A DNA stretch of 56,019 nucleotides. Source: a virus. Its lineage: Duplodnaviria; Caudoviricetes. The translations under genes were made by a program, and so were the position numbers. Below the pieces are notes generated by a model. The model saw only the letters and a program-made list of their open reading frames with translations. It ran no database searches and was not told the origin of the DNA. Location of the stretch: IMG/VR virus record IMGVR_UViG_3300036402_000107, positions 1 to 56,019 of that record; one strand, 5' to 3'. Shown in pieces: positions 18,467-34,585 of the stretch; positions within the stretch are counted from its first letter, which is position 1; each line of letters opens with the position of its first letter.

Positions 18467-18655
18467 CGCTCCCGGAGGGCAGGACGGACGAACGGAGAGG
18501 GTCGAGGTGGGGGCGGGAGGAGCAGCCGGTAGGCTCACAGGAAAGCGACGAACCATCGTCAACGAAGCCATGGAACGGGCGGGACTAGTCGCGGGTCATG
18601 AGGAAGGCAAAGCCCCCTCGTCCCATCTCTGTATGGCAGCAGGAGCAACAAGACC

Positions 18656-18907
18656 ATGAGCAAGAAGGGCTTCACCGTGCCGGTATGGCAAAAGAAACAC
18701 GCACCGGTCTGCGACTGCGGTAACGTCATGTCGCCCTGCATGGTGACCGTGGACGACGAGGGCAGGAAGCCGGAGCGTCTGCCGATGTGGCTCTGCCTCG
18801 AGCCGTCCCACGTGTGCACGGCCTCGCTCTACGTCCGGGCGATCCCCGACGACGAGCTGGAGGAGCAGTGGCGGACGCCCGCTTATAAACGAAAGCGGGC
18901 TTTATAA
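18656..18907 (+). CDS. Small Cys-rich hypothetical protein
   Basis: AGGAG upstream; CxC and 'WLC....HVC' suggest Zn binding. Confidence 0.55.
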   Translation: MSKKGFTVPVWQKKHAPVCDCGNVMSPCMVTVDDEGRKPERLPMWLCLEPSHVCTASLYVRAIPDDELEEQWRTPAYKRKRAL

Positions 18908-18946
18908 TCGGGGGGACTTGCGTCAACAGACCCCTTGTGGTATAAT
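18883..18946 (+). promoter_or_regulatory. Early sigma70 promoter P1 with upstream palindromic box
   Basis: TTATAAA-N11-TTTATAA (18883-18907); TTGCGT(18918)-17-TATAAT(18941) with extended TG. Confidence 0.85.
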
Positions 18947-19009
18947 GCGTCTTCGGTCGGGTTTCCCGATCGGCCGATCCGGCGGGTTCCGGGTTGAAAG
19001 GACGAGACC

Positions 19010-19435
19010 GTGCAGACGATCAAGACACTCCAAGGACAGTTTTTCCTCCTCAGCAACTTCGCCCCGACTCCCGTCAGCTTCGAGGGCGTCCTCTTCCCGA
19101 CCGTTGAACACGCCTTCCAAGCCCAGAAGACGCACGACAACGCCGAGCGTCGGCGGATCGCGAGCCTCCCCAAGCCCGGTCAGGCGAAGCACGCCGGGAA
19201 GCGAGTCAAGCTCCGGGAGGATTGGGAGCAGGTCAAGGTCGGGATCATGAAGGCGATTCTCGTCGCCAAGTTCGAGCAGAACGCAGCAGCACGGGACGTC
19301 CTTTATCGAACCGGCGACGCCCGGATCGAGGAGGGCAACCTTTGGAACGACACCTTTTGGGGCGTCAGCCTTAAGACCGGGAAGGGCAAGAACACCCTCG
19401 GGCTCCTCCTCGAAGAGATCCGCAACACGCTTTGA
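19010..19435 (+). CDS. NADAR (YbiA-like) family protein
   Basis: 'LSNF', 'FPTVEHAFQAQK', 'LREDWEQVK..IM..ILVAKF.QN', 'EGN.W.DTFWG', 'GKN.LG.LL..IR'. Confidence 0.9.
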   Translation: MQTIKTLQGQFFLLSNFAPTPVSFEGVLFPTVEHAFQAQKTHDNAERRRIASLPKPGQAKHAGKRVKLREDWEQVKVGIMKAILVAKFEQNAAARDVLYRTGDARIEEGNLWNDTFWGVSLKTGKGKNTLGLLLEEIRNTL

Positions 19436-19498
19436 GCCGAAACGCCCGAGAGGGCGTCTGCAGCGATCGACCCCGCTGCACTGACGAGGCAGGTTCCT
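19436..19498 (+). ncRNA. Type II hammerhead ribozyme HH1
   Basis: GCC-GAAAC-GCCC-GAGA-GGGC-GTC^(19458)-TGCAGCG-loop-CGCTGCA-CTGACGA-GGC-AGGTTCCT; complete catalytic core. Confidence 0.93.
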
Positions 19499-19515
19499 TG
19501 ACTCAGGAGACACCG

Positions 19516-19836
19516 ATGATTCTCGAGATCCAGAAGTGGCAGCAGGACGTGCAGGCCAAGAACCTGCACCGGGCGGACGTCGTGCACAAGTTCAGCGGCA
19601 TTAAGGTCGGCTTCATGACGCAGCAGACCTACAAGTGCAAGGGCGGTCTGGGAGCGACGTTCAAGATGTACGCCCTGCTCTCGAACGGCACCGACACCAC
19701 CTACGTCTGGTCTTCCTCGATCAACGGCGGCGACCTCACCCACGAGAACGAGCAGTGTGCTCGCCGGTGCGGGCTGGAGATCCTGACCCGCTACGTCGAG
19801 AAGCACGGCGTGCCCGGGGTTAAGCAGATCGCTTGA
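19516..19836 (+). CDS. Hypothetical protein (gene B of cassette 1)
   Basis: AGGAG 19505-19509, ATG 19516. Confidence 0.65.
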   Translation: MILEIQKWQQDVQAKNLHRADVVHKFSGIKVGFMTQQTYKCKGGLGATFKMYALLSNGTDTTYVWSSSINGGDLTHENEQCARRCGLEILTRYVEKHGVPGVKQIA

Positions 19837-19861
19837 CACCAACGCGTTCGTGTGGTAGAAT
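19833..19861 (+). promoter_or_regulatory. Early sigma70 promoter P2
   Basis: TTGACA-17-TAGAAT with extended TG. Confidence 0.8.
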
Positions 19862-19916
19862 CCGTGGTTGGGGGTCTGACCCGGCAGGTTCCGGGGTTCG
19901 AGAGGATCGGTGCTCT

Positions 19917-20180
19917 GTGTTCTTTGTCTTCGCTGAAGATCTCTGCTCCTGCCTCGTCGGCCCGTTCGAGACCCGCGAGGAGGCGGAGGGTCATCTGGCT
20001 TGGTGCCGTGACGAGCGGCACGACGGTGCGACCATGGAGGTCGTGTCTCGGTTCATCGCCGAGCGTCTGTCGCCGGACATGACGATGACCCCCGCCCTAG
20101 ACCGGGCGTCCTCCCCCGTCGCCAGCGACGCCCTGCAGCCGTGGGACGACCTCGACGCGAACGGCCGTCAGGTCTTCTAA
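19917..20180 (+). CDS. Hypothetical protein
   Basis: Downstream of P2, GAGG upstream; 'VGPFETREEA' motif. Confidence 0.5.
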   Translation: MFFVFAEDLCSCLVGPFETREEAEGHLAWCRDERHDGATMEVVSRFIAERLSPDMTMTPALDRASSPVASDALQPWDDLDANGRQVF

Positions 20181-20208
20181 ACCGAACAACAACTTAACGA
20201 AGATCAAG

Positions 20209-20245
20209 AGACCCCTCCCCGTGACCCGGGCGAGGGGTCTTGCGT
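20209..20245 (+). terminator. Hairpin/terminator before P3
   Basis: AGACCCCTC / GAGGGGTCT stem. Confidence 0.45.
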
Positions 20246-20301
20246 TATAAAGGGCGTCCGCGTCTATACTACTTGCGTTAACGCAAAAGCTGTGGTATAA
20301 T
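20245..20301 (+). promoter_or_regulatory. Early sigma70 promoter P3 with palindromic box
   Basis: TTATAAA-N11-TCTATAC (20245-20269); TTGCGT(20273)-17-TATAAT(20296), extended TG. Confidence 0.85.
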
Positions 20302-20364
20302 CCTCTTTCGGTTGCGGATTCGCAACCGGCCGATCCGGCGGTGAGTCCGGACTGAAAGGACTAG

Positions 20365-20769
20365 ATGATGATTCGCCAGTTCATTCCGATCGGCTTCGAG
20401 TTCCCCGGTGGCTACACTTGGTGCGTCGACGACGAAAAGAAGGAATCGCACGCCGTCTACCCTGACGGGTCGTCCAAGCCCGCGACTGAGTCTTACTCCG
20501 GTGACTTCCTGTCCTTTGCCTTAGATTCAGTCGATCAAGAAGTCTGGCTGGAGCTGACCCGCCCTCTCGTCTGGATCGACACCGGCCTCGAAGGCCAGCC
20601 GTACGTCGAGGTCTACGAGGTCTTCGTCTGCACCGCCGTGATCGACGGCGTGAAGGTGGCCCGGTACTCGAACCCGGAGAAGGACGAAATGGTCGAGGTG
20701 CCCGTGAGCGAGATCCGCACCGGTCGCGGGGTCTTCGCCGACAAGAACGTCTTCGACTGCTCCAAGTAA
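20365..20769 (+). CDS. Hypothetical acidic protein (gene A of cassette 2)
   Basis: GAAAGGA SD then ATG; stop abuts HH2. Confidence 0.7.
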   Translation: MMIRQFIPIGFEFPGGYTWCVDDEKKESHAVYPDGSSKPATESYSGDFLSFALDSVDQEVWLELTRPLVWIDTGLEGQPYVEVYEVFVCTAVIDGVKVARYSNPEKDEMVEVPVSEIRTGRGVFADKNVFDCSK

Positions 20770-20833
20770 GCCGAAACGCCCGCGAGGGCGTCGAGCGAGG
20801 ATTGACCTCCCGCTCCTGACGAGGCAGGTTCCT
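20770..20833 (+). ncRNA. Type II hammerhead ribozyme HH2
   Basis: GCC-GAAAC-GCCC-GCGA-GGGC-GTC^(20792)-GAGCG(A)GG..CCCGCTC-CTGACGA-GGC-AGGTTCCT. Confidence 0.93.
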
Positions 20834-20852
20834 CCTGACGGAGAATGACGAG

Positions 20853-21251
20853 ATGACCATCACCCAGATCAAGCGGAAGCACAACCCCCATCAACCCGTG
20901 GGCCGCTGGATTCGCCCCGCGAAGCGGATGGCGATCTACCTCAGGGATCGCTTCCAGTGCCTTTACTGTGGTGCCGACCTCCACGGCGTCACCGACCCCC
21001 GCCACATCCAGCTCGACCACAAGACCCCGGTGAGCAAGGGAGGCTCGAACCTCGAGCACAACGTCTTCACGACCTGCATGCGTTGCAACTGCTCGCGGGG
21101 ATCGAAGCCCTTCCGGTCGTTCGCGACCACGGGGGCGAAGCAGCGGGCCAAGCGTCAGCTCTCGCTCTCGCTCAAGCCGTACCTCGCCCTCGCCAAGGCC
21201 ATCTGCTCGGGGGCGGTCAGCAGGGAGCAGGCTCTCAGCGAGATCCGCTAG
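20853..21251 (+). CDS. HNH endonuclease
   Basis: 'RDRFQCLYCG...LDHKTPVSKGGSN...NVFTTCMRCNCSRG'. Confidence 0.85.
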   Translation: MTITQIKRKHNPHQPVGRWIRPAKRMAIYLRDRFQCLYCGADLHGVTDPRHIQLDHKTPVSKGGSNLEHNVFTTCMRCNCSRGSKPFRSFATTGAKQRAKRQLSLSLKPYLALAKAICSGAVSREQALSEIR

Positions 21252-21296
21252 CGTCCGTGAAACGACCGGGCACCCCCGGGGTGATGAAAGGTGACG

Positions 21297-21449
21297 ATGA
21301 TCTACCGAATCCTGCAAGCTCGCTTCGGCCGTTGGGGGCGTCGCCTCGCCCTCCTCTGCGTCGCAATCTGGGTCTTCACGCTCCTCTGCTGCCTGCTGGC
21401 CTTTGGCTGGCAGCTGTTAGGGCGTTATAAAAGCGGCGGGGCTTTATAG
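21297..21449 (+). CDS. 50-aa single-pass membrane peptide (not in the ORF track)
   Basis: TGAAAGG SD; MIYRILQARFGRWGRRLALLCVAIWVFTLLCCLLAFGWQLLGRYKSGGAL*. Confidence 0.5.
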   Translation: MIYRILQARFGRWGRRLALLCVAIWVFTLLCCLLAFGWQLLGRYKSGGAL

Positions 21450-21489
21450 CAGGCAGGGGATTGCGTAGGCTTACAGCCTGTGGTACAAT
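21425..21489 (+). promoter_or_regulatory. Early sigma70 promoter P4 with palindromic box
   Basis: TTATAAA-N11-TTTATAG (21425-21449); TTGCGT(21461)-17-TACAAT(21484), extended TG. Confidence 0.85.
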
Positions 21490-21556
21490 GCGTCCTCAGT
21501 CGTGGGATCACGACTGGCCGACCCGGCGGTGAGTCCGGGATGAAAGGACGTGCGAC

Positions 21557-21748
21557 GTGAGCGAGACGAACCTCCCCAAGTGGATCGAAGACCTGAAGGC
21601 GGACTTTATCGAGTGGAGCGGCGGCTTCGGCCCCGAGGAGTGCGAGGTCGATGAGATCACCAAGTACCTCGAAGTCAGCGAGATCGACGAGGACGACGAT
21701 CGATTCGGTGCCCTCTGGGATCTCCACAACGGCGAGCTTGAAGACTGA
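21557..21748 (+). CDS. Small, very acidic protein (gene A of cassette 3)
   Basis: GAAAGGA SD, GTG start; 63 aa, D/E-rich; stop abuts HH3. Confidence 0.65.
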   Translation: MSETNLPKWIEDLKADFIEWSGGFGPEECEVDEITKYLEVSEIDEDDDRFGALWDLHNGELED

Positions 21749-21812
21749 GCCGAAACGCCCGCGAGGGCGTCCGACCGAGACTAACCCCCGGTCGCTGATG
21801 AGGCAGGTTCCT
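21749..21812 (+). ncRNA. Type II hammerhead ribozyme HH3
   Basis: GCC-GAAAC-GCCC-GCGA-GGGC-GTC^(21771)-CGACCG..CGGTCG-CTGATGA-GGC-AGGTTCCT. Confidence 0.93.
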
Positions 21813-21833
21813 CGATCTCGAAAGGATCACGTC

Positions 21834-22991
21834 ATGGTTGCAGGAAAGATCACCCCCGCTGGTCACATGGTCAAGGGTCTCGACGGCGTTGAGCGTTTCG
21901 TCGCCCACGAGGCCGATCAGGACGGCCCGGTCACCGAGACGACGAAGACCCCGCGTCTCGCCCCCAAGAGCAAGGCCGAGAAGAAGGCCGACAAGGCCGC
22001 GAAGAAGGGCAAGCCGGTCGTCGAGACCGTCGACGCCGGTGGCGGCATCTTGGTCGACGTCGCGGACAGCAAGCCCGCGAAGAAGGCCAAGAAGGTCAAG
22101 ACCGCTGGCCCGCTCTCGACCGAGGTCTCCAACCCGGAGCAGGAGGAAGTGAAGAAGACGACGTGCAACCACGGCGTCAAGTCCAACGAGAGCATCCTCT
22201 GGGAGATCGCCGACAAGTACAGCAACGCCTGTGCGACCCGGATCTCTGACCCGTTCACGGGCGAGAGCACCGGCTTCGCGATGGTGCACGGCTGGGACGG
22301 TGCCGCCGAGCAGTGGCACTCCGTCCGCCCGGTGAGCGACCGGTACAAGCCGATCCGGACACAGGATCTCATCGAGATCGCCGTCGAGCGTCTGCAGGGG
22401 ACGCCGCTGATGGCCGAGAAGATCCGCACCGACCGCTTCGGCACTTCGCTCGAGGTCAAGATCCCGATCAACCGCCCGATCGAGATCGGCAAGGGCGTCG
22501 CGTTCGATCAGGGTCACCCGTGGACTCGCCACGGCGAGCACACCAAGCGGGACGTGCTCTACCCGGTCGTGAACATACGTAACGCCTACGACGCCACCTC
22601 CTCGATCATCGTCGACGTCGGGCTGTTCCGGATGATCTGCAGCAACGGCATGAAGATCATGCTCGCGGGAGTCGGTGCCAAGGCGATCCACACGAAGCAC
22701 GAGGTCGCCCGCGTCATCGAGACCATCGCCAAGCAGGAACTCACCGGCGACCTCGACTTCGTCCGCAAGCTCTCGGTCGCGAAGCTCGACGTCAAGGACG
22801 TCGCGAAGATCATGGGCGACCGCGTCCCCGAGAAGTGGCAGAAGGAGCTAGCGGAGTACGCCAAGCTCGGCGGGAACACCGCTTGGTCGTGGATGAACGG
22901 CCTGAGCTACCTGAGCACCCACGAGTATAGTCTCCTCCGCTCGCGTCAGCTTGACCCGATCATGACGGCGATTCAGAAGCTCGCCGCCTAG
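21834..22991 (+). CDS. DUF932-like protein with Lys-rich N-terminus
   Basis: 'VSDRYKPI', 'NAYDATSS....GLFRMICSNGM', 'IHTK', 'TAWSWMN..S...TH'. Confidence 0.75.
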   Translation: MVAGKITPAGHMVKGLDGVERFVAHEADQDGPVTETTKTPRLAPKSKAEKKADKAAKKGKPVVETVDAGGGILVDVADSKPAKKAKKVKTAGPLSTEVSNPEQEEVKKTTCNHGVKSNESILWEIADKYSNACATRISDPFTGESTGFAMVHGWDGAAEQWHSVRPVSDRYKPIRTQDLIEIAVERLQGTPLMAEKIRTDRFGTSLEVKIPINRPIEIGKGVAFDQGHPWTRHGEHTKRDVLYPVVNIRNAYDATSSIIVDVGLFRMICSNGMKIMLAGVGAKAIHTKHEVARVIETIAKQELTGDLDFVRKLSVAKLDVKDVAKIMGDRVPEKWQKELAEYAKLGGNTAWSWMNGLSYLSTHEYSLLRSRQLDPIMTAIQKLAA

Positions 22992-23073
22992 GGCCGAGAC
23001 CGCCGACCACGGACGCCCTCCCGACGCGGAGGGCGTCCTGCTCGTTGGTCTCAGACCAGAAGGGAAGCAGGAG

Positions 23074-23346
23074 ATGGACAAGACGAACAGCCACCGCCAC
23101 AAGTGTGCAGTGTGCGGCTTCGTTTGGCGTCACGCGAACGAGTCCCCCGGGCGTGACAACGACGTGGCCCACACGTGCCGGTGCGGCAACCAGCAGTTCT
23201 TCATCTACCGGGGCGAGGACAAGGCACAGGTCGCGACGTGCGGGCGTCCCTGCAGGCAGGGCGACCGACCCGTCCTCGCCCCCGGCGTCGTGTATCAAGC
23301 TTACTTCGGCGACCTGCACCCCGACAACAAACCCGGCGACCTCTAG
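23074..23346 (+). CDS. Small Zn-finger-like hypothetical protein
   Basis: AGGAG SD; 'HKCAVCGFVWRH...HTCRCG'. Confidence 0.55.
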   Translation: MDKTNSHRHKCAVCGFVWRHANESPGRDNDVAHTCRCGNQQFFIYRGEDKAQVATCGRPCRQGDRPVLAPGVVYQAYFGDLHPDNKPGDL

Positions 23347-23385
23347 CCGACGACCCGGCGTGACCCGGGCTGAAAGGAACGCAAC

Positions 23386-23877
23386 GTGAACGAAGCACAG
23401 AAGAAGATTCTCGAGAAGCACCCCGGAGCCCGGCTGCAGAAGCTGGTCTACGTCGGCGTCCGACCCGGCAACAAGACCAAGCGGGTGTACGGCTACGTCA
23501 AGGTCAGTGACGACGACCTCAAGTCAGGTAACCCGGTGGTCAATGCCGCACAGGCGATGTACTGGAAGAAGAGCCTCTACCCGGGCACGGCGGGGACGGT
23601 CATCGAGATCGTCATGGAGGAGGGGGCGGACGGCGTCTCGATCTGGAAGGCCGTAAACTACGTGGGCCGCTGGCCGAACCGCGAGCAGTGCGTCGCGTGG
23701 CAGGCGGAGCACGACGAGACGGTGGCCGACCTCGACAGCAAGAAGGACGCGATGCACGACTCGATCATCGAGACGCTGGCACCGGTCGCGAAAGCCTACC
23801 GACACTCGAACCGAGCGGGACGGGCCGTGCTCCTCGCCAAGGTCATCCGGTACCTTACGGCCTCGTCCTTCGACTAG
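23386..23877 (+). CDS. Hypothetical protein
   Basis: Preceded by a CCCGG/CCGGG hairpin and TGAAAGGA SD. Confidence 0.65.
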   Translation: MNEAQKKILEKHPGARLQKLVYVGVRPGNKTKRVYGYVKVSDDDLKSGNPVVNAAQAMYWKKSLYPGTAGTVIEIVMEEGADGVSIWKAVNYVGRWPNREQCVAWQAEHDETVADLDSKKDAMHDSIIETLAPVAKAYRHSNRAGRAVLLAKVIRYLTASSFD

Positions 23878-23935
23878 ACGCAACGCGTCCCGACCCCCCG
23901 ACGTACAACCCGGCGAAGACGACCGCTCTCGGGGA

Positions 23936-24004
23936 TTATAGAGAGCGGTCTTCTTTATAACGCAACAGGAAGTACTTGCGTTGACGACCAGCCTGTGTTA
24001 TAAT
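23936..24004 (+). promoter_or_regulatory. Early sigma70 promoter P5 with palindromic box (overlaps a terminator-like hairpin)
   Basis: TTATAGA-N11-TTTATAA (23936-23960); TTGCGT(23976)-17-TATAAT(23999), extended TG. Confidence 0.85.
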
Positions 24005-24070
24005 GCGTTCTCGGTCGGGGTTTCCGACCGAGCCGACCCGGCGACGAACCCGGGATGACGGAGACGACCA

Positions 24071-24376
24071 ATGACCAACGAGACTTTCAACGCCGCCTTT
24101 TCGCAGAAGTCCGCCTTTGCGGCCATCCGCTCGCTCGGACTGACCGTCAAGAAGACTGAGGACGGCGAGATCCGAGTGAACTTCAAGGGTCACAGCGAGG
24201 AGACCGCCTACTACACCACCGACCTGAAGGACGCTTACGACACCGCCCGTTCGATGGCTGCCCTCAAGGCGAGCAGCAGCCCCAAGAAGAAGTGTCACCT
24301 TTGCGGCGGCACCGACCACACCTCCTCGCAGTGCGAGTTCACCGGCGAAGCCGAAGCCACCGACATGAATCGCTGA
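24071..24376 (+). CDS. Hypothetical protein with C-terminal CCHC zinc knuckle (gene A of cassette 4)
   Basis: 'CHLCGGTDHTSSQC' = CX2CX4HX4C. Confidence 0.7.
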   Translation: MTNETFNAAFSQKSAFAAIRSLGLTVKKTEDGEIRVNFKGHSEETAYYTTDLKDAYDTARSMAALKASSSPKKKCHLCGGTDHTSSQCEFTGEAEATDMNR

Positions 24377-24412
24377 AACGAGACGACCCGCCCGTGGGTC
24401 ATGAAACGGGAA

Positions 24413-24475
24413 GCCGAAACGCCCTGCGGGGCGTCGGGCGGGAATGACCTCCCGCCCCTGATGAGGCAGGTTCCT
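24413..24475 (+). ncRNA. Type II hammerhead ribozyme HH4
   Basis: GCC-GAAAC-GCCC-TGCG-GGGC-GTC^(24435)-GGGCGGGA-ATGACC-TCCCGCCC-CTGATGA-GGC-AGGTTCCT. Confidence 0.93.
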
Positions 24476-24497
24476 CGACTCAAGAACGGAGGCCCCC

Positions 24498-25184
24498 GTG
24501 GCCAACAAGCTCGCAGCTGCTATCGCGTTCCGTCAGTACGCCAAGACCAAGACCCGCAAGGTCGGTGACGCCGTCGACGACCCGATCGCCGACAAGCTCG
24601 CCAAGGCCCAGTCCGCCGACGACATGGCCAAGCTCGCCATCGAGTCGGGCATCCCCAAGGACGTTGTCGAGGAGAAGGCCAAGAAGGCCCCGAACCCCGG
24701 TCAGTTCCGCATGACCATCGGGAACCTGATCCGTGGCGTTTACGCCCGGGTCGAGAAGTACCACACCCTCACGGGCGGGCGGGTCGATGCGGCGGACGTC
24801 GGGACGAAGAAGCTCTTTCAGGCGAAGATGGCGGAGTACCGCAAGGCCAACCGCCCCGTGAAGGACGGCCCGAAGCCCTCGACTGGGAAGAAGAAGACCG
24901 AGACCGCCAAGAAGGGCGGCAGGGTCGCTGCCTCCAAAAGCGGCAAGGGCGACGCTGCGGCGACTCCCAAGGGAGCACCCAGCAAGTCCGAGGCCGCTGG
25001 CCGTGGCAAGGGAAAGAAGGGTGGCGACGGTTCTGCCAAGAAGTCCCGCTGGCAGCGGAACGCCAGCAACAAGAAGGGCAAGCCCGCTGCTGACGCTGCT
25101 GACGGTGCGGGCGTGGGCGAGCAGGGCGAGCAGGAGGGCGGGCAGTCCAGTCTTGCCGAGGCAATTGCCGAAGCCAACAGCTGA
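24498..25184 (+). CDS. Hypothetical protein with Lys/Ala/Gly-rich basic tail
   Basis: GGAGG SD, GTG start; 'PNPGQFRMTIGNLIRG' core. Confidence 0.7.
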   Translation: MANKLAAAIAFRQYAKTKTRKVGDAVDDPIADKLAKAQSADDMAKLAIESGIPKDVVEEKAKKAPNPGQFRMTIGNLIRGVYARVEKYHTLTGGRVDAADVGTKKLFQAKMAEYRKANRPVKDGPKPSTGKKKTETAKKGGRVAASKSGKGDAAATPKGAPSKSEAAGRGKGKKGGDGSAKKSRWQRNASNKKGKPAADAADGAGVGEQGEQEGGQSSLAEAIAEANS

Positions 25185-27488: not shown

Positions 27489-27972
27489 CTACGTCGCGTT
27501 GATCCGTCTAGCCCGCGACGGGCACCGCGGGGCGTGGGAGGCGATGGTGGCCCGGCTCACCCCGATGCTGCGGTCTTTGGCCCGTCGCCTTGGCCCGGTC
27601 GGGCACGAGGAGGACGCCGTGCAGGAAGCCCTGCTACGCGTCGTGCAGCAGATCGGGCGGGTCGATCTCGGCCGCGAGTCCACGGCCCGCACCTTCATCA
27701 TGAACGCGGGCGTGTTCGCGATCCGCACCTTCAACACCAAGATCATGAGGGAGAACCGACGCGACAAGCTGAAGACACACCGCACCGGCGTCGTCCAAGA
27801 CCCCGACCTCGCCGACTTCCCGCCCGTCCTGTCGCTATACTTCCGCTACATCATGGAGCACGGCACGATTCTCGGTGCCCACAAGAGCGTCGGCGACGAG
27901 TTGGGGATTCACAAGGCGTCCGCGTTCCGCCGCTTCCATCAAGAGGCGAAGACTTTCATGGAGGGACTGTGA
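27472..27972 (+). CDS. ECF-like RNA polymerase sigma factor
   Basis: 'LIRLARDGHRGAWEAMV', 'EDAVQEALL', 'TFIMN...', C-terminal 'ELGIHKASAFRR' HTH. Start uncertain. Confidence 0.7.
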   Translation: MSPQSSYVALIRLARDGHRGAWEAMVARLTPMLRSLARRLGPVGHEEDAVQEALLRVVQQIGRVDLGRESTARTFIMNAGVFAIRTFNTKIMRENRRDKLKTHRTGVVQDPDLADFPPVLSLYFRYIMEHGTILGAHKSVGDELGIHKASAFRRFHQEAKTFMEGL

Positions 27973-30311
27973 GAAGAGTAATCGTCGTCGGCGACATGCC
28001 GCAACCAGACCAGCAGCTGCAAGCCATCATGAAGGAGGTCTCCCCCGACTGTCTGTACTGGCACGTCAACGAGGTGGAGAAGTTCAAGCCGGTGACGGGC
28101 GACCTCATGGTGCCGCTCGGCAAGGCCGCGATCGAGACCGTGCTCCGCGTCGACAAGGCCAAGGTAGATGATCTCGTCGGGCAGCAGTACGACGCCAAGG
28201 TCGAGGGGGCGGACGTCAAGGTCATCTGCCAGTACCACCCCGGTTACCTCGCGAGGATGCAGGAGAAGAAGGGCGGAGCGACCGAGCGGGCGGTCAAAGC
28301 GTGGTTCGACGTGTGGGACACCGTGCAGGAGGTCTCCACGGGCGAGGAGGTCAAGATCCCTGAGGTGCTCGTCCTCACCGAGTACGAAGACGTCGTGGCG
28401 TGGCTGGAGTACCTGCGTGACACCGACCACGTGATCGGCTACGACTACGAGACTTGGGGCGTGAACCAGAGCGGGGAGAACACCGCACTCCGGCCGGAAC
28501 TGTGCACCGAGTTCGAGATCCTCACCATCGGCTGTGCCGTCGTCAGGGAAGACGGCACGTGGGACGCCTTCAGCTTCCCCTTCGACTGGCACAGGGAGGA
28601 CGGCACGTGGTACTGGACGGAGGAGCAGCAGCAGGTGATCGCCGACCTGTGGTTCGGGATCTACCTCGGCAAGAGGTCGATCGCTCACTTCTGCAAGTAC
28701 GAGCACAAGTGCAACCTCAAGCGGTTCGGCAGGACGAACGTCTCGCTCATGGACACGATGCTGGAGGACGACACCTACAACGAAGTGAACGACCACAAGC
28801 TTCACCGCGTCGGTGCCCGAATGGGTCTGCGGTGGATGCGGTACAAGAGCCTGAGCGACAAGACCCGCAAGAACCCGAAAGAAGCACCGCTGGACAAACT
28901 GCTGGAGTACAACGCCCTCGACGCCCTCTGCACGATCCTCTCGCACGTCAAGCTCGACGAACTCCTCAGCGAGCAGCAGCTCGACGGCGTGGCCCGGATG
29001 GAAGAGAGCTTCTGCTACTACCTCGCCAAGCTCGAGATGAACGGCATGCAGGTGGACGCGAACGAAGCGTCGATCGTCCGTGCCGAGCTTCGCGACGTCG
29101 AGATCCCCAAGCTGCAGCACGAGTTCAGCACCCTGCCCGAGATCCAGAAGGTGGAGCGGTGGGCACTCCGCACCATGAAGAAGTACCAGACCAAGGCGTA
29201 TCAGGAGGGACGCAAGCAGGTCGTCTTCTCCCCGAAGTCGCCGCCCATGATGAAGTACCTGTGCATGGACGTGCTGAAGCTGCCGATTCAGGAAGTCAAA
29301 GTCAACGGCAAGTACACTCTGAAGTTCGACAAGCGGACGCTCGAGCCATACGAGGAGGACGTCCCCGTCCTGACGCACCTCGTCAACCTTCGCCGCACGT
29401 CGGCGATGCTGACGGGCTTCCTCGACAAGTGGGAAGCCTTCGTCGACTCGCACGGCAAGGTGCACAGCCAGTACAACCAAGGCAAGGTCGTCACCGGCCG
29501 TCTCTCTTCGACCGACCCGCCCCAGCAGAACATACCCAAGAAGCACCGGGTGCGGAAGGTCTACGTCAGCCGGTACAAGGACGGCTGGCTCGTTAACGTC
29601 GACGTCAAGCAGCAAGAACCCCGCTTGCTCGCCGGATGGTCGAAGGACGAGAAGATGATCGAGGCGATCAACGGTGGGTACGACCTCCACGGCTTCGTGG
29701 CCAGCGAGATCTACGGCGTGCCCTACCTCGCCGACCAGACCGAGCACCGCGAGATCGGGAAGCGGATGAATCTCGGCATGATGTACGGGCAGACCGAGTA
29801 CGGGCTCGCCGCCAAGACCGGGATGACCGTCGAGGCAGCGGTGCGTCTCCTGAAGCTGTACGATCGCCGCTTCCCCCGGATCGCCAAGCAGCGTCAGGAG
29901 TGGCAGGCTTTCGCCGCCAAGCACGGCTACGCCGAAGACCTGTTTGGCCGTCGCCGCCACCTCCCCGACGCCCTCTCGAAGGACAAGTGGCTGCGGGAGC
30001 GGGCACTCCGCCAAGCCTGCAACTACCCGATCCAGCGTACCGCCCTCGTCTTCACGATGGTCTCGATGGGCGTGGCGATGCAGACCATCGAAGACGAGGG
30101 GCTCGAAGACGCGATGTGCGTCTGCGGCACCGTGCACGACTCGATCATCGGGGACGCCGCCGACGCCAAGTACCGCAAACGGCTGCAAGAGATCTTGGTG
30201 TACGGCGTGGAGATCCATAACAAGGCCGAGTACTGGAAGGACAGCGGCGTGCCCATGAAGGCGGACGTCGAGTGGGGGCGGAACCTCTACCAGCTGGAGA
30301 AGGCCGCATGA
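27969..30311 (+). CDS. polA: Family A DNA polymerase with 3'-5' exonuclease and N-terminal UDG-like domain
   Basis: ExoI 'DYET', ExoIII 'YNALD', 'TGRLSSTDPPQQNIP', motif A 'DVKQQEPR', motif B 'REIGKRMNLGMMYG', motif C 'VHDS'. N-terminal 'LGKAA...YHPGYLAR'. Confidence 0.92.
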   Translation: MRRVIVVGDMPQPDQQLQAIMKEVSPDCLYWHVNEVEKFKPVTGDLMVPLGKAAIETVLRVDKAKVDDLVGQQYDAKVEGADVKVICQYHPGYLARMQEKKGGATERAVKAWFDVWDTVQEVSTGEEVKIPEVLVLTEYEDVVAWLEYLRDTDHVIGYDYETWGVNQSGENTALRPELCTEFEILTIGCAVVREDGTWDAFSFPFDWHREDGTWYWTEEQQQVIADLWFGIYLGKRSIAHFCKYEHKCNLKRFGRTNVSLMDTMLEDDTYNEVNDHKLHRVGARMGLRWMRYKSLSDKTRKNPKEAPLDKLLEYNALDALCTILSHVKLDELLSEQQLDGVARMEESFCYYLAKLEMNGMQVDANEASIVRAELRDVEIPKLQHEFSTLPEIQKVERWALRTMKKYQTKAYQEGRKQVVFSPKSPPMMKYLCMDVLKLPIQEVKVNGKYTLKFDKRTLEPYEEDVPVLTHLVNLRRTSAMLTGFLDKWEAFVDSHGKVHSQYNQGKVVTGRLSSTDPPQQNIPKKHRVRKVYVSRYKDGWLVNVDVKQQEPRLLAGWSKDEKMIEAINGGYDLHGFVASEIYGVPYLADQTEHREIGKRMNLGMMYGQTEYGLAAKTGMTVEAAVRLLKLYDRRFPRIAKQRQEWQAFAAKHGYAEDLFGRRRHLPDALSKDKWLRERALRQACNYPIQRTALVFTMVSMGVAMQTIEDEGLEDAMCVCGTVHDSIIGDAADAKYRKRLQEILVYGVEIHNKAEYWKDSGVPMKADVEWGRNLYQLEKAA

Positions 30312-33389: not shown

Positions 33390-33487
33390 ACGAGATCGTG
33401 TAACGACAGTACCCACCTGAGGGTTATAGAGACGGGCGGAGGTACAGCGGTGAGTTGCCGTTGCCTCCGCCCCTTTTGTTCGGGAGG

Positions 33488-34585
33488 ATGACCTTGATCA
33501 AGCGGAACAAAGCTAACGTGATTATCGACGGCCAGTGGGGCAGCACCGGGAAGGGTCTGCTCGCTGGCTACCTTTACGACCGGTACCCCAGCATCCTCGC
33601 TGGCGTCTGCGACTTCATGCCGAACGCGGGTCACACCGTGCACCTTCCCAACGGCACGGTCTTCGTCTCGCGGCACGTGCCGATCGCTGCGGCCTACGGG
33701 CGGATGGCCTTCATCGGCCCCCACGCCGCGATCGACATGAACACGCTGAAGAACGAGATGCGGCATCTGCGGGACTGCCGCTCCGAACCGGGCGAGGTGT
33801 ACGTGCACCCGCTCGCCTCCGTGATCTCCCCGGACGACCTGACGGCCGAGCGGATCATCTTGGGGCGGATCGCCAGCACGCAGAAGGGTGGTCACGCCTC
33901 GACGGCCCGCAAGACGATGAGGACGAAGGACGCGTCGATCGCCGGTGACTACAAGACGGCCCTCCGCGAGATCGGCGTGAACGTCGCCGACACGCACGAA
34001 TGCGTGCAGCGGACGCTGGCCCACGGCGGGACGGTGTTGATCGAGACGGCACAGGGCTTCGATCTCGGGTTGAACCACGGCAAGGAGTGGCCCTACGTCA
34101 CGGGCCGCGACTGCCTCGTGGGTCGGGCACTCGACAACGCGGGCGTCCCGATCCGCGACTGCGGCAGCGTCATCGGCTGCATGCGTACCTTCCCCATCCG
34201 CGTCGGCAACACCGACAACGGGAACAGTGGCCCGCACTACGAAGACCAGCGGGAGCTGACGTGGGAGCAGGTCTCCGAGATCGCGGGCGAGAAGATCGAG
34301 GAGCGGACGACCGTCACCAACCGCGTCCGTCGCGTCTTCACCTTCAGCGATACGCAGGCTCGTCGCTTCTTTACGTTCGTCCGCCCCGACTACCTGTTCC
34401 TCAACTTCTGGAACCAGACCAACGCCGAGCCTCAGGGCGAGCGGAGCAAGCGTCTCTGGCACATCAAGGCACTGGCGGCTCACCACGGCTGCCAGCTCCG
34501 CCTGATCGGCACCGGCCCGAAGTCCGGCGACGTGATCGACCTCGAAGACCCGACCGCCTCACAGATTGGAGTGCTGCACCTTTGA
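33488..34585 (+). CDS. purZ: PurZ, N6-succino-2-amino-2'-deoxyadenylate synthase (PurA paralog)
   Basis: 'DGQWGSTGKG' (Ser at the PurA catalytic Asp of GDEGKG), 'PNAGHT', 'IETAQGFDL', 'RTFPIRVG', 'TTVTNRVRRVF', and 'NFWNQ' replacing the PurA 'TKLD' GTP motif. Confidence 0.88.
   Translation: MTLIKRNKANVIIDGQWGSTGKGLLAGYLYDRYPSILAGVCDFMPNAGHTVHLPNGTVFVSRHVPIAAAYGRMAFIGPHAAIDMNTLKNEMRHLRDCRSEPGEVYVHPLASVISPDDLTAERIILGRIASTQKGGHASTARKTMRTKDASIAGDYKTALREIGVNVADTHECVQRTLAHGGTVLIETAQGFDLGLNHGKEWPYVTGRDCLVGRALDNAGVPIRDCGSVIGCMRTFPIRVGNTDNGNSGPHYEDQRELTWEQVSEIAGEKIEERTTVTNRVRRVFTFSDTQARRFFTFVRPDYLFLNFWNQTNAEPQGERSKRLWHIKALAAHHGCQLRLIGTGPKSGDVIDLEDPTASQIGVLHL

Follow-up and report, generated by a model that had tools for sequence, protein, structure and literature searches.

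A repeated two-part leader at tandem early promoters of a soil phage and a candidate link to pseudoknots adjoining Shine-Dalgarno sequences

The IMG/VR virus record IMGVR_UViG_3300036402_000107 (Duplodnaviria; Caudoviricetes), a sequence of 56,019 bases with 64% G+C and a completeness estimate of 80%, was analysed here at its full length ('the window'); it is present in a single sequencing run, that of a soil metagenome. We found in it four near-identical modules (18918-19012, 20273-20367, 21461-21559 and 23976-24073), in each of which a sigma-70-like promoter is followed by a hairpin (hairpin A), the pentanucleotide GCCGA, a second hairpin (hairpin B), a Shine-Dalgarno (SD) sequence and the start codon of a small gene. 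We propose, at a probability of about one in two, that this leader is a constitutive element working through the host machinery, which would combine a stabiliser at the 5' end of the mRNA with a structured boundary of the ribosome-binding site. The segment comprising GCCGA and hairpin B can also be related to a family of H-type pseudoknots abutting SD sequences, which we recovered from both single-stranded DNA Microviridae and tailed phages, and both stems of which covary.

The promoter-leader modules and hairpin A

The four blocks align over about 150 nucleotides (nt) with a mean column identity of 73%. Their promoter-like sites, recognized by pattern on the + strand (18918..18946, 20273..20301, 21461..21489 and 23976..24004, the last being the P5 of the first-pass annotation), are laid out as TTGCGT, 17 nt, and TATAAT or, in the third, TACAAT, with TGTGG (as in the first) or TGTGT preceding the -10 box. 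The pattern TTGCGT-N15-19-TAYAAT has five matches in the window, four of which are the modules, as against none in 100 shuffles; similarly, the leader pattern GCCGAYCCGGCG..CCGGR..GAMRG matches four times on the + strand of the record, with no match on the - strand or in the reversed control. A minus-strand match to TTGCGT-N19-TATAAT at 23935-23965 lies inside the terminator/TTATAA block before promoter 4 and is probably a by-product of palindromic A/T boxes. Hairpin A starts 6-8 nt past the -10 box in all four copies, the distance from this box to the hairpin core CGGTCG/CAGTCG being 8 nt in each, so that by prediction the primary transcript would open with this hairpin after 0-3 unpaired nt. 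At the other end of the leader, hairpin B ends 2 nt before the SD, which is GAAAGGA in three modules and GACGGAG in the last. These lead, respectively, into the GTG start of a NADAR-domain gene (SD and start at 18996..19012), the ATG start of a 134-aa gene (20354..20367), the GTG start of a 63-aa gene (21542..21559) and, with the SD-like GACGGAG, the ATG start of a 101-aa gene (24057..24073), all on the + strand. Accordingly, the layout given in the first-pass annotation, where GCCGA, YCCGG-loop-CCGGR and GAAAGGA (GACGGAG in the last copy) come after each hairpin A, is correct as to the sequence, and the four pairs of hairpin A arms quoted there are all present as written; it is the treatment of GCCGA as a plain linker that needs refining, for it is probably one strand of a pseudoknot formed with hairpin B.

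The four copies of hairpin A, all on the + strand, are CGGTCGGG/CCCGATCG at 18954..18972 (8 bp including one G.U, loop UUU, with U18953.G18973 as a possible ninth pair), CGGTTGCG/CGCAACCG at 20309..20328 (8 bp, loop GAUU), CAGTCGTG/CACGACTG at 21497..21516 (8 bp, loop GGAU) and CTCGGTCGG/CCGACCGAG at 24010..24032 (9 bp, loop GGUUU), where the final G doubles as the first G of GCCGA. In the four-row alignment (A4) every one of the 30 cells with letters is paired; three of the eight pairs show changes on both sides (G-C to A-U and, twice, C-G to U-A), two show single-side changes to G.U and none is disrupted. Slid registers yielded no double changes and paired 23-50% of the cells, and 17 of 500 column shuffles reached the observed values; coming from four paralogues, which offer little statistical power, this covariation is suggestive and not conclusive. 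The G.U pairs of hairpins A and B turn into C/A mismatches on the opposite strand and work only on the + (mRNA) strand, and the fold therefore belongs to the sense transcript. Moreover, a dimeric DNA-binding protein occupying all four sites predicts invariant half-sites as against the symmetric covariation seen. The covariation and the strand-specific G.U pairs thus support the original suggestion that the leader is a structured RNA.

Terminator-like hairpins with TTTATAA stand directly before three of the four promoters, namely at 18877..18900 (before promoter 1, closing the upstream unit), 20208..20241 (before promoter 2, z -3.6) and 23913..23954 (before promoter 4, z -4.2), all on the + strand; ahead of promoter 3 the corresponding block has a weak fold (z -0.06). 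Boxes of the form TTATAAA/TTTATAA (18883-18907, 20245-20250, 21425-21430 and 23955-23960) flank, on both sides, the terminator-like hairpins ahead of each promoter. Of the seven occurrences of TTATAA in the window, five fall in these boxes, all within the 5-kb early region. The boxes could contribute to a terminator tail, act as an UP-like element or provide a binding site.

This arrangement recalls the PeSLs of T4-like phages, short conserved blocks of a terminator and an early promoter repeated between small variable early open reading frames (ORFs), which are described as composite motifs implicated in modular shuffling (PMC4122927). By analogy, conservation might act at the level of DNA, with the repeats being a mobile terminator-promoter-leader cassette that provides recombination points for shuffling early ORFs, and the RNA folds being secondary. 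The repeats do bracket unrelated small ORFs, and those of promoters 1, 2 and 4 are composites of a terminator-like hairpin and an early promoter. However, the PeSLs are described as DNA recombination points (PMC4122927), whereas the block in the window has a transcribed leader with covarying pairing; recombination homology predicts neither the compensatory changes of hairpin A nor the strand-specific G.U pairs, and it leaves the fixed spacing to the SD unexplained. Our searches also returned no related phage close enough to show exchange at the repeats. We hence consider this explanation rather improbable, although a recombination role of this kind could coexist with a leader that stabilizes the mRNA and bounds its ribosome-binding site.

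Two adjacent stem-loops directly downstream of early promoters, in a region where terminator-like hairpins separate tandem same-strand units, could also point to a signal for processive antitermination, like HK022 put or lambda nut, that would let RNA polymerase read through these hairpins. Such signals consist of a linear boxA element and a boxB hairpin with a GNRA-like pentaloop, or of two stem-loops of about 30 nt with conserved bulges. The leader, at about 40 nt, is shorter than put; on inspection it has no boxA-like sequence, the loops of hairpin B are 6-9 nt and those of hairpin A 3-5 nt, the latter hairpin having no bulges, and it has no Rfam match. A signal on every unit would, besides, make the terminators pointless, and units of hairpin B and the pseudoknot family lie flush with the SD in intercistronic positions, in Microviridae as well, a placement that speaks for translation or decay as against a modification of the polymerase. 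Antitermination is thus a distinctly improbable account of the leader.

No relative of this genome with a complete leader was recovered. The strict leader pattern had no matches in viral contigs; among 31 matches in metagenome contigs, 30 look like chance occurrences in G+C-rich DNA without a start codon or hairpin A, the exception (L279) being a canonical member of the pseudoknot family, and among 18 in genome contigs, 16 look like chance and one, L324, is canonical. A match in Neorhizobium (L314), which precedes an SDR-type chromosomal gene beside a divergent regulator, was set aside as chance. A search for related phages with the DUF932 protein found none, that with the family A DNA polymerase (PolA) found a single 5.3-kb contig at 40% identity, and a 64-kb viral record that has hammerhead ribozymes of the same type as the window (see below) has a PolA that is only 30% identical and lacks the repeated leader. 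That record (L362) carries at 18613-18843 eight tandem 21-nt repeats, GCTGYGKGCTGAGGGCRAYAA, which are unrelated to the leader. With respect to Rfam, the novelty anticipated in the first-pass annotation holds: gathering thresholds gave only three matches, all to the type II hammerhead, and at E<=10 no match on 18800-24600 overlaps the leader.

GCCGA, hairpin B and a family of SD-adjoining pseudoknots

The segment from GCCGA through hairpin B to the SD is nearly invariant among the copies, being far more conserved than hairpin A, so that the window alone cannot test the pairing of GCCGA with hairpin B. Using a pattern of GCCGA and hairpin B derived from the window, we detected 45 loci in viral contigs; the public collections were scanned by exact patterns, and the counts given here are therefore lower bounds on the extent of the family. 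At 25 of these loci, in contigs of 36-57% G+C, there is a near-identical element, GCCGA-S-CCCGG-CGGC-UAAA-CCGGG-S'-AGAAAGGA, lying 8-10 nt before the start codon. The fold reads as an H-type pseudoknot with the consensus GCCG-A-SCCCGG-CGGC-UAAA-CCGGGS-A-GAAAGGA, in which stem 1 is GCCG/CGGC, loop 1 is A, stem 2 is SCCCGG/CCGGGS' and loop 3 is UAAA; across the family, loop 1 is one nt, mostly A, and loop 3 is 3-4 nt and A/U-rich (UAAA, UAAU, CAAU, AUAU).

Both stems of the family covary. When stem 2 was left free, 16 of the 95 unique matches listed paired at six of six positions, with six stem sequences (partner shuffles gave a mean of 1.0 and a maximum of 5), and when stem 1 was left free, 19 of the 73 matches listed paired at four of four positions in the canonical register, as against 0-2 in slid registers. 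The stem 1 types among the matches listed are GCCG/CGGC (13), CCCG/CGGG (4), GCUG/CAGC (1) and ACCG/CGGU (1). These free-stem counts are the unbiased ones, as the candidate site list kept only perfect pairing with a G+C-rich stem 2: a 24-row alignment (A2), in which seven of ten pairs show double changes, has rows selected for perfect pairing and fixed geometry, and its 100% pairing is by construction.

The family has a recurrent position. Leaving aside ten loci judged to be chance (L011, L066, L226, L257, L262, L295, L298, L308, L312 and L313), 37 of 45 sites have an upstream stop codon, whose median distance to the fold is 8 nt; the start codon follows 10-19 nt after the fold, and the spacer from fold to SD is typically 1 nt. 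The spacing after the stop codon resembles that of recoding signals. Pseudoknot-stimulated readthrough of the stop codon was considered and rejected, as no more than 12 of the 37 downstream ORFs share the reading frame of the ORF before them, and each has its own SD and start. Five phage records have 1, 1, 3, 5 and 2 copies, and among GenBank genomes the family lies between annotated genes in a tailed phage as well as in two Microviridae, each about 4.6 kb long. One 4.6-kb microvirus (L328, MG945418.1) has two SD-abutting pseudoknots before small ORFs, at 927-951 and 1175-1207, the first of which lies about 10 nt after a TATAAT box and has variant stems (GGGC/GCCC and GCGG/CCGC) and a 4-nt middle loop. 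In prokaryotes the family is nearly absent, with 1-2 plausible sites among 18 pattern matches in a set of one representative genome per species.

No downstream gene family is shared between the sites: the genes are diverse, and of 25 proteins compared with PHROGs a few are regulators and most have no match. In Rfam 15 the pseudoknot sites of 20 loci are unmatched, with the region around L009 giving only partial matches of 10.7 and 12.1 bits at E<=10, and a full-text literature search, covering the main texts of a limited paper collection, turned up no description of the motif. We therefore regard this widespread element as apparently undescribed. In some pseudoknot-bearing phage contigs a HEARO RNA, twister-P5 ribozymes and a type II hammerhead lie no more than 3 kb away (L020 4801-5012, L019 4906-4959, L020 1603-1656, L037 2172-2236 and L016 3522-3587). 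Additionally, the loci L171-L278 have many plain G+C-rich hairpins flush with AGAAAGG in which stem 1 is impossible, as exemplified by GCCCGGGCGAAAGUCCGGGC with its GNRA-type loop; this suggests that such phages tend more broadly to set a stable fold immediately 5' of the SD.

In the window, all five copies that bear GCCGA have a 5-bp stem 2, YCCGG/CCGGR, placed 2 nt before GAAAGGA/GACGGAG, which agrees with the stem 2 by which the family is defined here, a G+C-rich helix of 5-7 bp whose end lies 1-3 nt ahead of the SD. To compare them with the family we used a covariance model (R1) built solely from members outside the window, searching the window with filters off. Among the 57 matches listed, the window copies rank first, second, fourth and fifth; true members score 31-60 bits. 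The best of the window is the copy at 21517..21539 (22.2 bits, E 3.6e-4), with stem 1 as GCCG/CGGU, stem 2 as CCCGG/CCGGG and loop 3 as GAGU. It is followed by that at 20329..20351 (15.8 bits, E 0.024; stem 1 GCCG/CGGU, loop 1 A, stem 2 UCCGG/CCGGA, loop 3 GAGU). The copy at 18973..18993 is fourth (13.3 bits, E 0.12), with a putative stem 1 of CCG 18974-18976 and CGG 18983-18985 and a stem 2 of UCCGG 18978-18982 and CCGGG 18989-18993. The fifth (23346..23378; 12.2 bits, E 0.25) has neither promoter nor hairpin A and comes right after a TAG stop; it combines GCCGA, a possible and compensated stem 1 of 3 bp (ACG/CGU, at 23350), stem 2 CCCGG/CCGGG and the SD GAAAGGA with a GTG start at 23386. The copy of the fourth module, at 24032..24054, keeps stem 2 CCCGG/CCGGG intact and allows only two contiguous stem 1 pairs. 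All of these are on the + strand, as are two units of hairpin B alone. One of them spans 19833..19906, where a promoter TTGACA-N17-TAGAAT (19833-19861) is followed by CCCGG/CCGGG (19880-19895), the SD GAGAGGA and a GTG start at 19917; the other, at 21266..21291, is an intercistronic hairpin CCGGG/CCCGG (stem 21266-21279) followed by GAAAGG before a small membrane-type ORF. The isolated hairpin-B-like units reported in the first-pass annotation (19880-19895, 21266-21279 and 23346-23378) are thus real, the last retaining GCCGA. The hairpin B loops are 6-9 nt long (CGGGUU, CGGUGAGU and CGACGAAC), and loop 1 is A in four window copies.

GCCGA and hairpin B can be folded as a small H-type pseudoknot, of which GCCGA is the probable 5' strand. 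The likeness to the family extends to GCCGA itself, the G+C-rich stem 2 of the CCGG type, the CGG that directly succeeds stem 2's 5' strand and the spacing between CCGG and GAAAGG, as well as to occurrence in multiple copies before unrelated small genes of phages. Several features set the window copies apart from the family. Stem 2 has 5 bp in place of the family's 6-7, and stem 1 is weak, with 3 bp at 18973 and 23346, 4 bp including a G.U at 20329 and 21517 and 2 contiguous bp at 24032, its first G being one that may instead close hairpin A. Loop 3 (GUU, GAGU, GAGU, GAC and ACGAAC) departs from the A/U-rich, UAAA-like loop of the family, and the SD spacer is 2 nt as against 1. Four of the five copies lie in promoter-proximal 5' leaders behind hairpin A, with only that at 23346 following a stop codon, whereas the family is mostly intercistronic, about 6-13 nt (typically about 8) after a stop codon. 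Further, the 24032 copy is not listed by R1 at E<=10, and the resemblance is partly built in, since the pattern that recovered the family came from the window itself. On balance we lean, somewhat beyond even odds, towards seeing the window element as a divergent variant of the family, as distinct from a demonstrated member of it.

Two further explanations concern this segment. That its conservation exceeds that of hairpin A is as expected of a shared recognition site, and the element overlaps the ribosome-binding region; it could be an operator for an RNA-binding protein of the phage or host, which would shut off the early first cistrons at translation or set its timing, in the manner of T4 RegA with its about 30 target mRNAs, or would mark the transcripts for processing. 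Multi-target translational repressors are established in phages (PMC3014915). However, the RegA sites described there are A+U-rich and unstructured, unlike the leader element (PMC3014915), and no candidate RNA-binding protein emerged among the 30 window proteins scanned against Pfam. The wider family, moreover, occurs in 4.6-kb Microviridae with very few genes and in unrelated tailed phages, and its sites have no common neighbouring gene. A protein operator is therefore an unlikely, though not negligible, explanation of the leader; a phage-encoded partner, which the protein-binding option of the first-pass annotation allowed, is unlikely for the wider family with its 4.6-kb members. Alternatively, the size of the fold and its H-type topology beside the SD resemble the smallest translational riboswitches, raising the notion of a small ligand-sensing pseudoknot that controls access to the SD. 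The diversity of the downstream genes and the all-G-C stems, which should fold constitutively, argue against this; besides, the SD lies outside the fold, no alternative SD pairing was seen and there is no Rfam match. We consider a riboswitch very improbable.

Hammerhead ribozymes and the surrounding genes

A type II hammerhead (Rfam RF02276, gathering 37) comes after the first cistron in every one of the four modules, at 19435..19498 (40.4 bits), 20769..20833 (37.9 bits), 21748..21812 (36.4 bits, just below gathering) and 24412..24475 (45.3 bits) of the + strand. The core CUGANGA...GAAA...GUC is present, with stem I and stem III both closed; in addition, the 3' tail GGCAGGUUCCU can pair with the loop of stem I, in the way reported for the type II pseudoknot. 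In three modules the ribozyme comes right after the stop codon or overlaps it, whereas in the fourth the codon ends 35 nt before the ribozyme, and the 3' tail of the ribozyme ends just before the next SD in all four. Beyond the window, the same hammerhead type fills this slot of stop codon, ribozyme, SD and start at a further 32 viral loci. Phage genes flanked by hammerheads in tandem have been described (Perreault et al. 2011, PMC3088659), and the hammerheads of the window are of this known kind; what is striking is the strict repeat of promoter, leader, ORF and hammerhead. Upon cleavage after GUC, the hairpin of stem I would form the exact start of the downstream RNA and that of stem III the end of the upstream RNA. 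Taken with hairpin A, these products imply that every predicted mRNA end in the region is a hairpin, and this is the main contextual argument for a stabilizing role.

The region of 18.9-25 kb in which these modules lie is situated between the tail and replication genes and consists of small, mostly unassignable ORFs, all on the + strand. The NADAR-domain gene (19010-19435; Pfam E 3e-27) is the first behind promoter 1, and its product is a candidate counter-defence enzyme, expressed first, that would remove ADP-ribose. Between the DUF932 gene and the next ORF there is a very stable 11-bp hairpin, GGACGCCCUCC...GGAGGGCGUCC (23011-23040, z -5.3), with no T-run after it. Elsewhere in the window, the Pfam scan recovered the portal, Mu-F-like, capsid, tail and large terminase proteins, as well as PolA (27534-30311), a DnaB-like helicase and an adenylosuccinate-synthetase-like protein (33455-34585). 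The best solved-structure matches of the last are 6FM1/6FKO/6TNH (E 7e-47), a group which we take to be phage PurZ, and 7ODX, which is named PurZ (E 4e-34); from these matches, the phage may make 2-aminoadenine (Z) DNA.

Proposed function and wider meaning

We posit that each module is a complete early-gene cassette, which would comprise a terminator, a host-type promoter, the structured leader, a first cistron, a hammerhead and a second cistron. Hairpin A would shield the mRNA from decay dependent on its 5' end, be it by the RppH/RNase E route or by RNase J. GCCGA and hairpin B would form a compact hairpin or an H-type pseudoknot ending 2 nt before the SD, as a divergent G+C-rich version of the family; this unit could provide a rigid 5' boundary of the ribosome-binding site that docks on the 30S platform, and/or block nucleases or ribosomes coming from upstream. 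Both parts would be constitutive and act via the host machinery, with neither a ligand nor a phage protein. The constant placement of the two folds, with hairpin A 6-8 nt from the -10 box and hairpin B ending 2 nt short of the SD, fits such a stabiliser-plus-translation role, in keeping with the enhancer and stabiliser options of the first-pass annotation, and the distribution of the family over 4.6-kb Microviridae and tailed phages argues for a host-machinery or purely physical mechanism.

Certain observations count against this proposal. The covariation of hairpin A comes from four paralogues, our searches having recovered no other genome with the complete leader, and is matched by the 17 of 500 shuffles mentioned above. 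The transcription start sites are placed by prediction only. Single-sequence folding energies are ordinary for the G+C content (z -0.4 to -3.7), so that the support for structure consists of covariation and position, not stability. Finally, the accessibility of the SD in six leaders did not exceed that of shuffles, with a fraction of 0.03-0.68 of these being at least as open, in a comparison of nested folding (pseudoknots excluded) against shuffled upstream sequence in which the SD coordinates are 1-2 nt off in some rows.

Among known systems, 5'-terminal stem-loops reportedly stabilize the ompA mRNA of E. coli and, combined with a strong SD, the aprE leader mRNA of B. subtilis. These resemble the window leader in having a stem-loop a few nt from the 5' end (here a predicted one), a strong SD and no ligand or dedicated protein, while in the window there is a further conserved fold, which could form a pseudoknot, and the leader, with its predicted start site and proposed stabilizing effect, recurs on four tandem operons. 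A different parallel is the pseudoknot in the leader of the T4-type gene 32, where an A+U-rich stretch intervenes between the fold and the ribosome-binding site. Like the fold proposed here, it is of the H-type and in a phage mRNA 5' leader upstream of the translation initiation region, but it is a single-copy nucleation site for autogenous gp32 repression (PMC3014915), whereas the window element is multi-copy, flush with the SD and before unrelated genes. The tandem type II hammerheads (PMC3088659) occupy an equivalent slot of stop codon, fold, SD and start in the same operons, and their cleavage would leave a 5'-terminal hairpin before the next SD; they are, however, catalytic RNAs with a defined core, and at its positions the leader has neither the core motifs nor an Rfam hammerhead score.

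More tentatively, and as a possibility that we would rate well short of even, GCCGA and hairpin B may belong to an uncurated and widespread class of cis-acting phage RNA, a H-type pseudoknot of about 25 nt flush with the SD, common to single-stranded DNA Microviridae and double-stranded DNA tailed phages and acting directly on the host machinery. Its mode of action might be docking on the 30S platform or stacking against the helix of SD and anti-SD, and it could also stand in the way of 5'-to-3' decay and of ribosomes arriving from the cistron upstream, so that ribosome-binding sites would carry a kind of portable 'cap'. In the soil phage, its combination with a 5'-terminal hairpin and hammerheads would give every early mRNA a structural seal at either end.

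Control of mRNA life and translation by structured 5' leaders is known, but few such leaders have been defined in phages and none in Rfam matches that of the window. If the above proposal is true, the window holds a complete natural design for insulating early genes, made up of a promoter, a 5' hairpin, a fold at the ribosome-binding site and a ribozyme cut behind the first cistron. As for the wider pseudoknot family, its covarying stems and fixed geometry, from 4.6-kb Microviridae to tailed phages, make it a directly testable host-acting element of translation or stability, and one that may serve as a compact genetic part.

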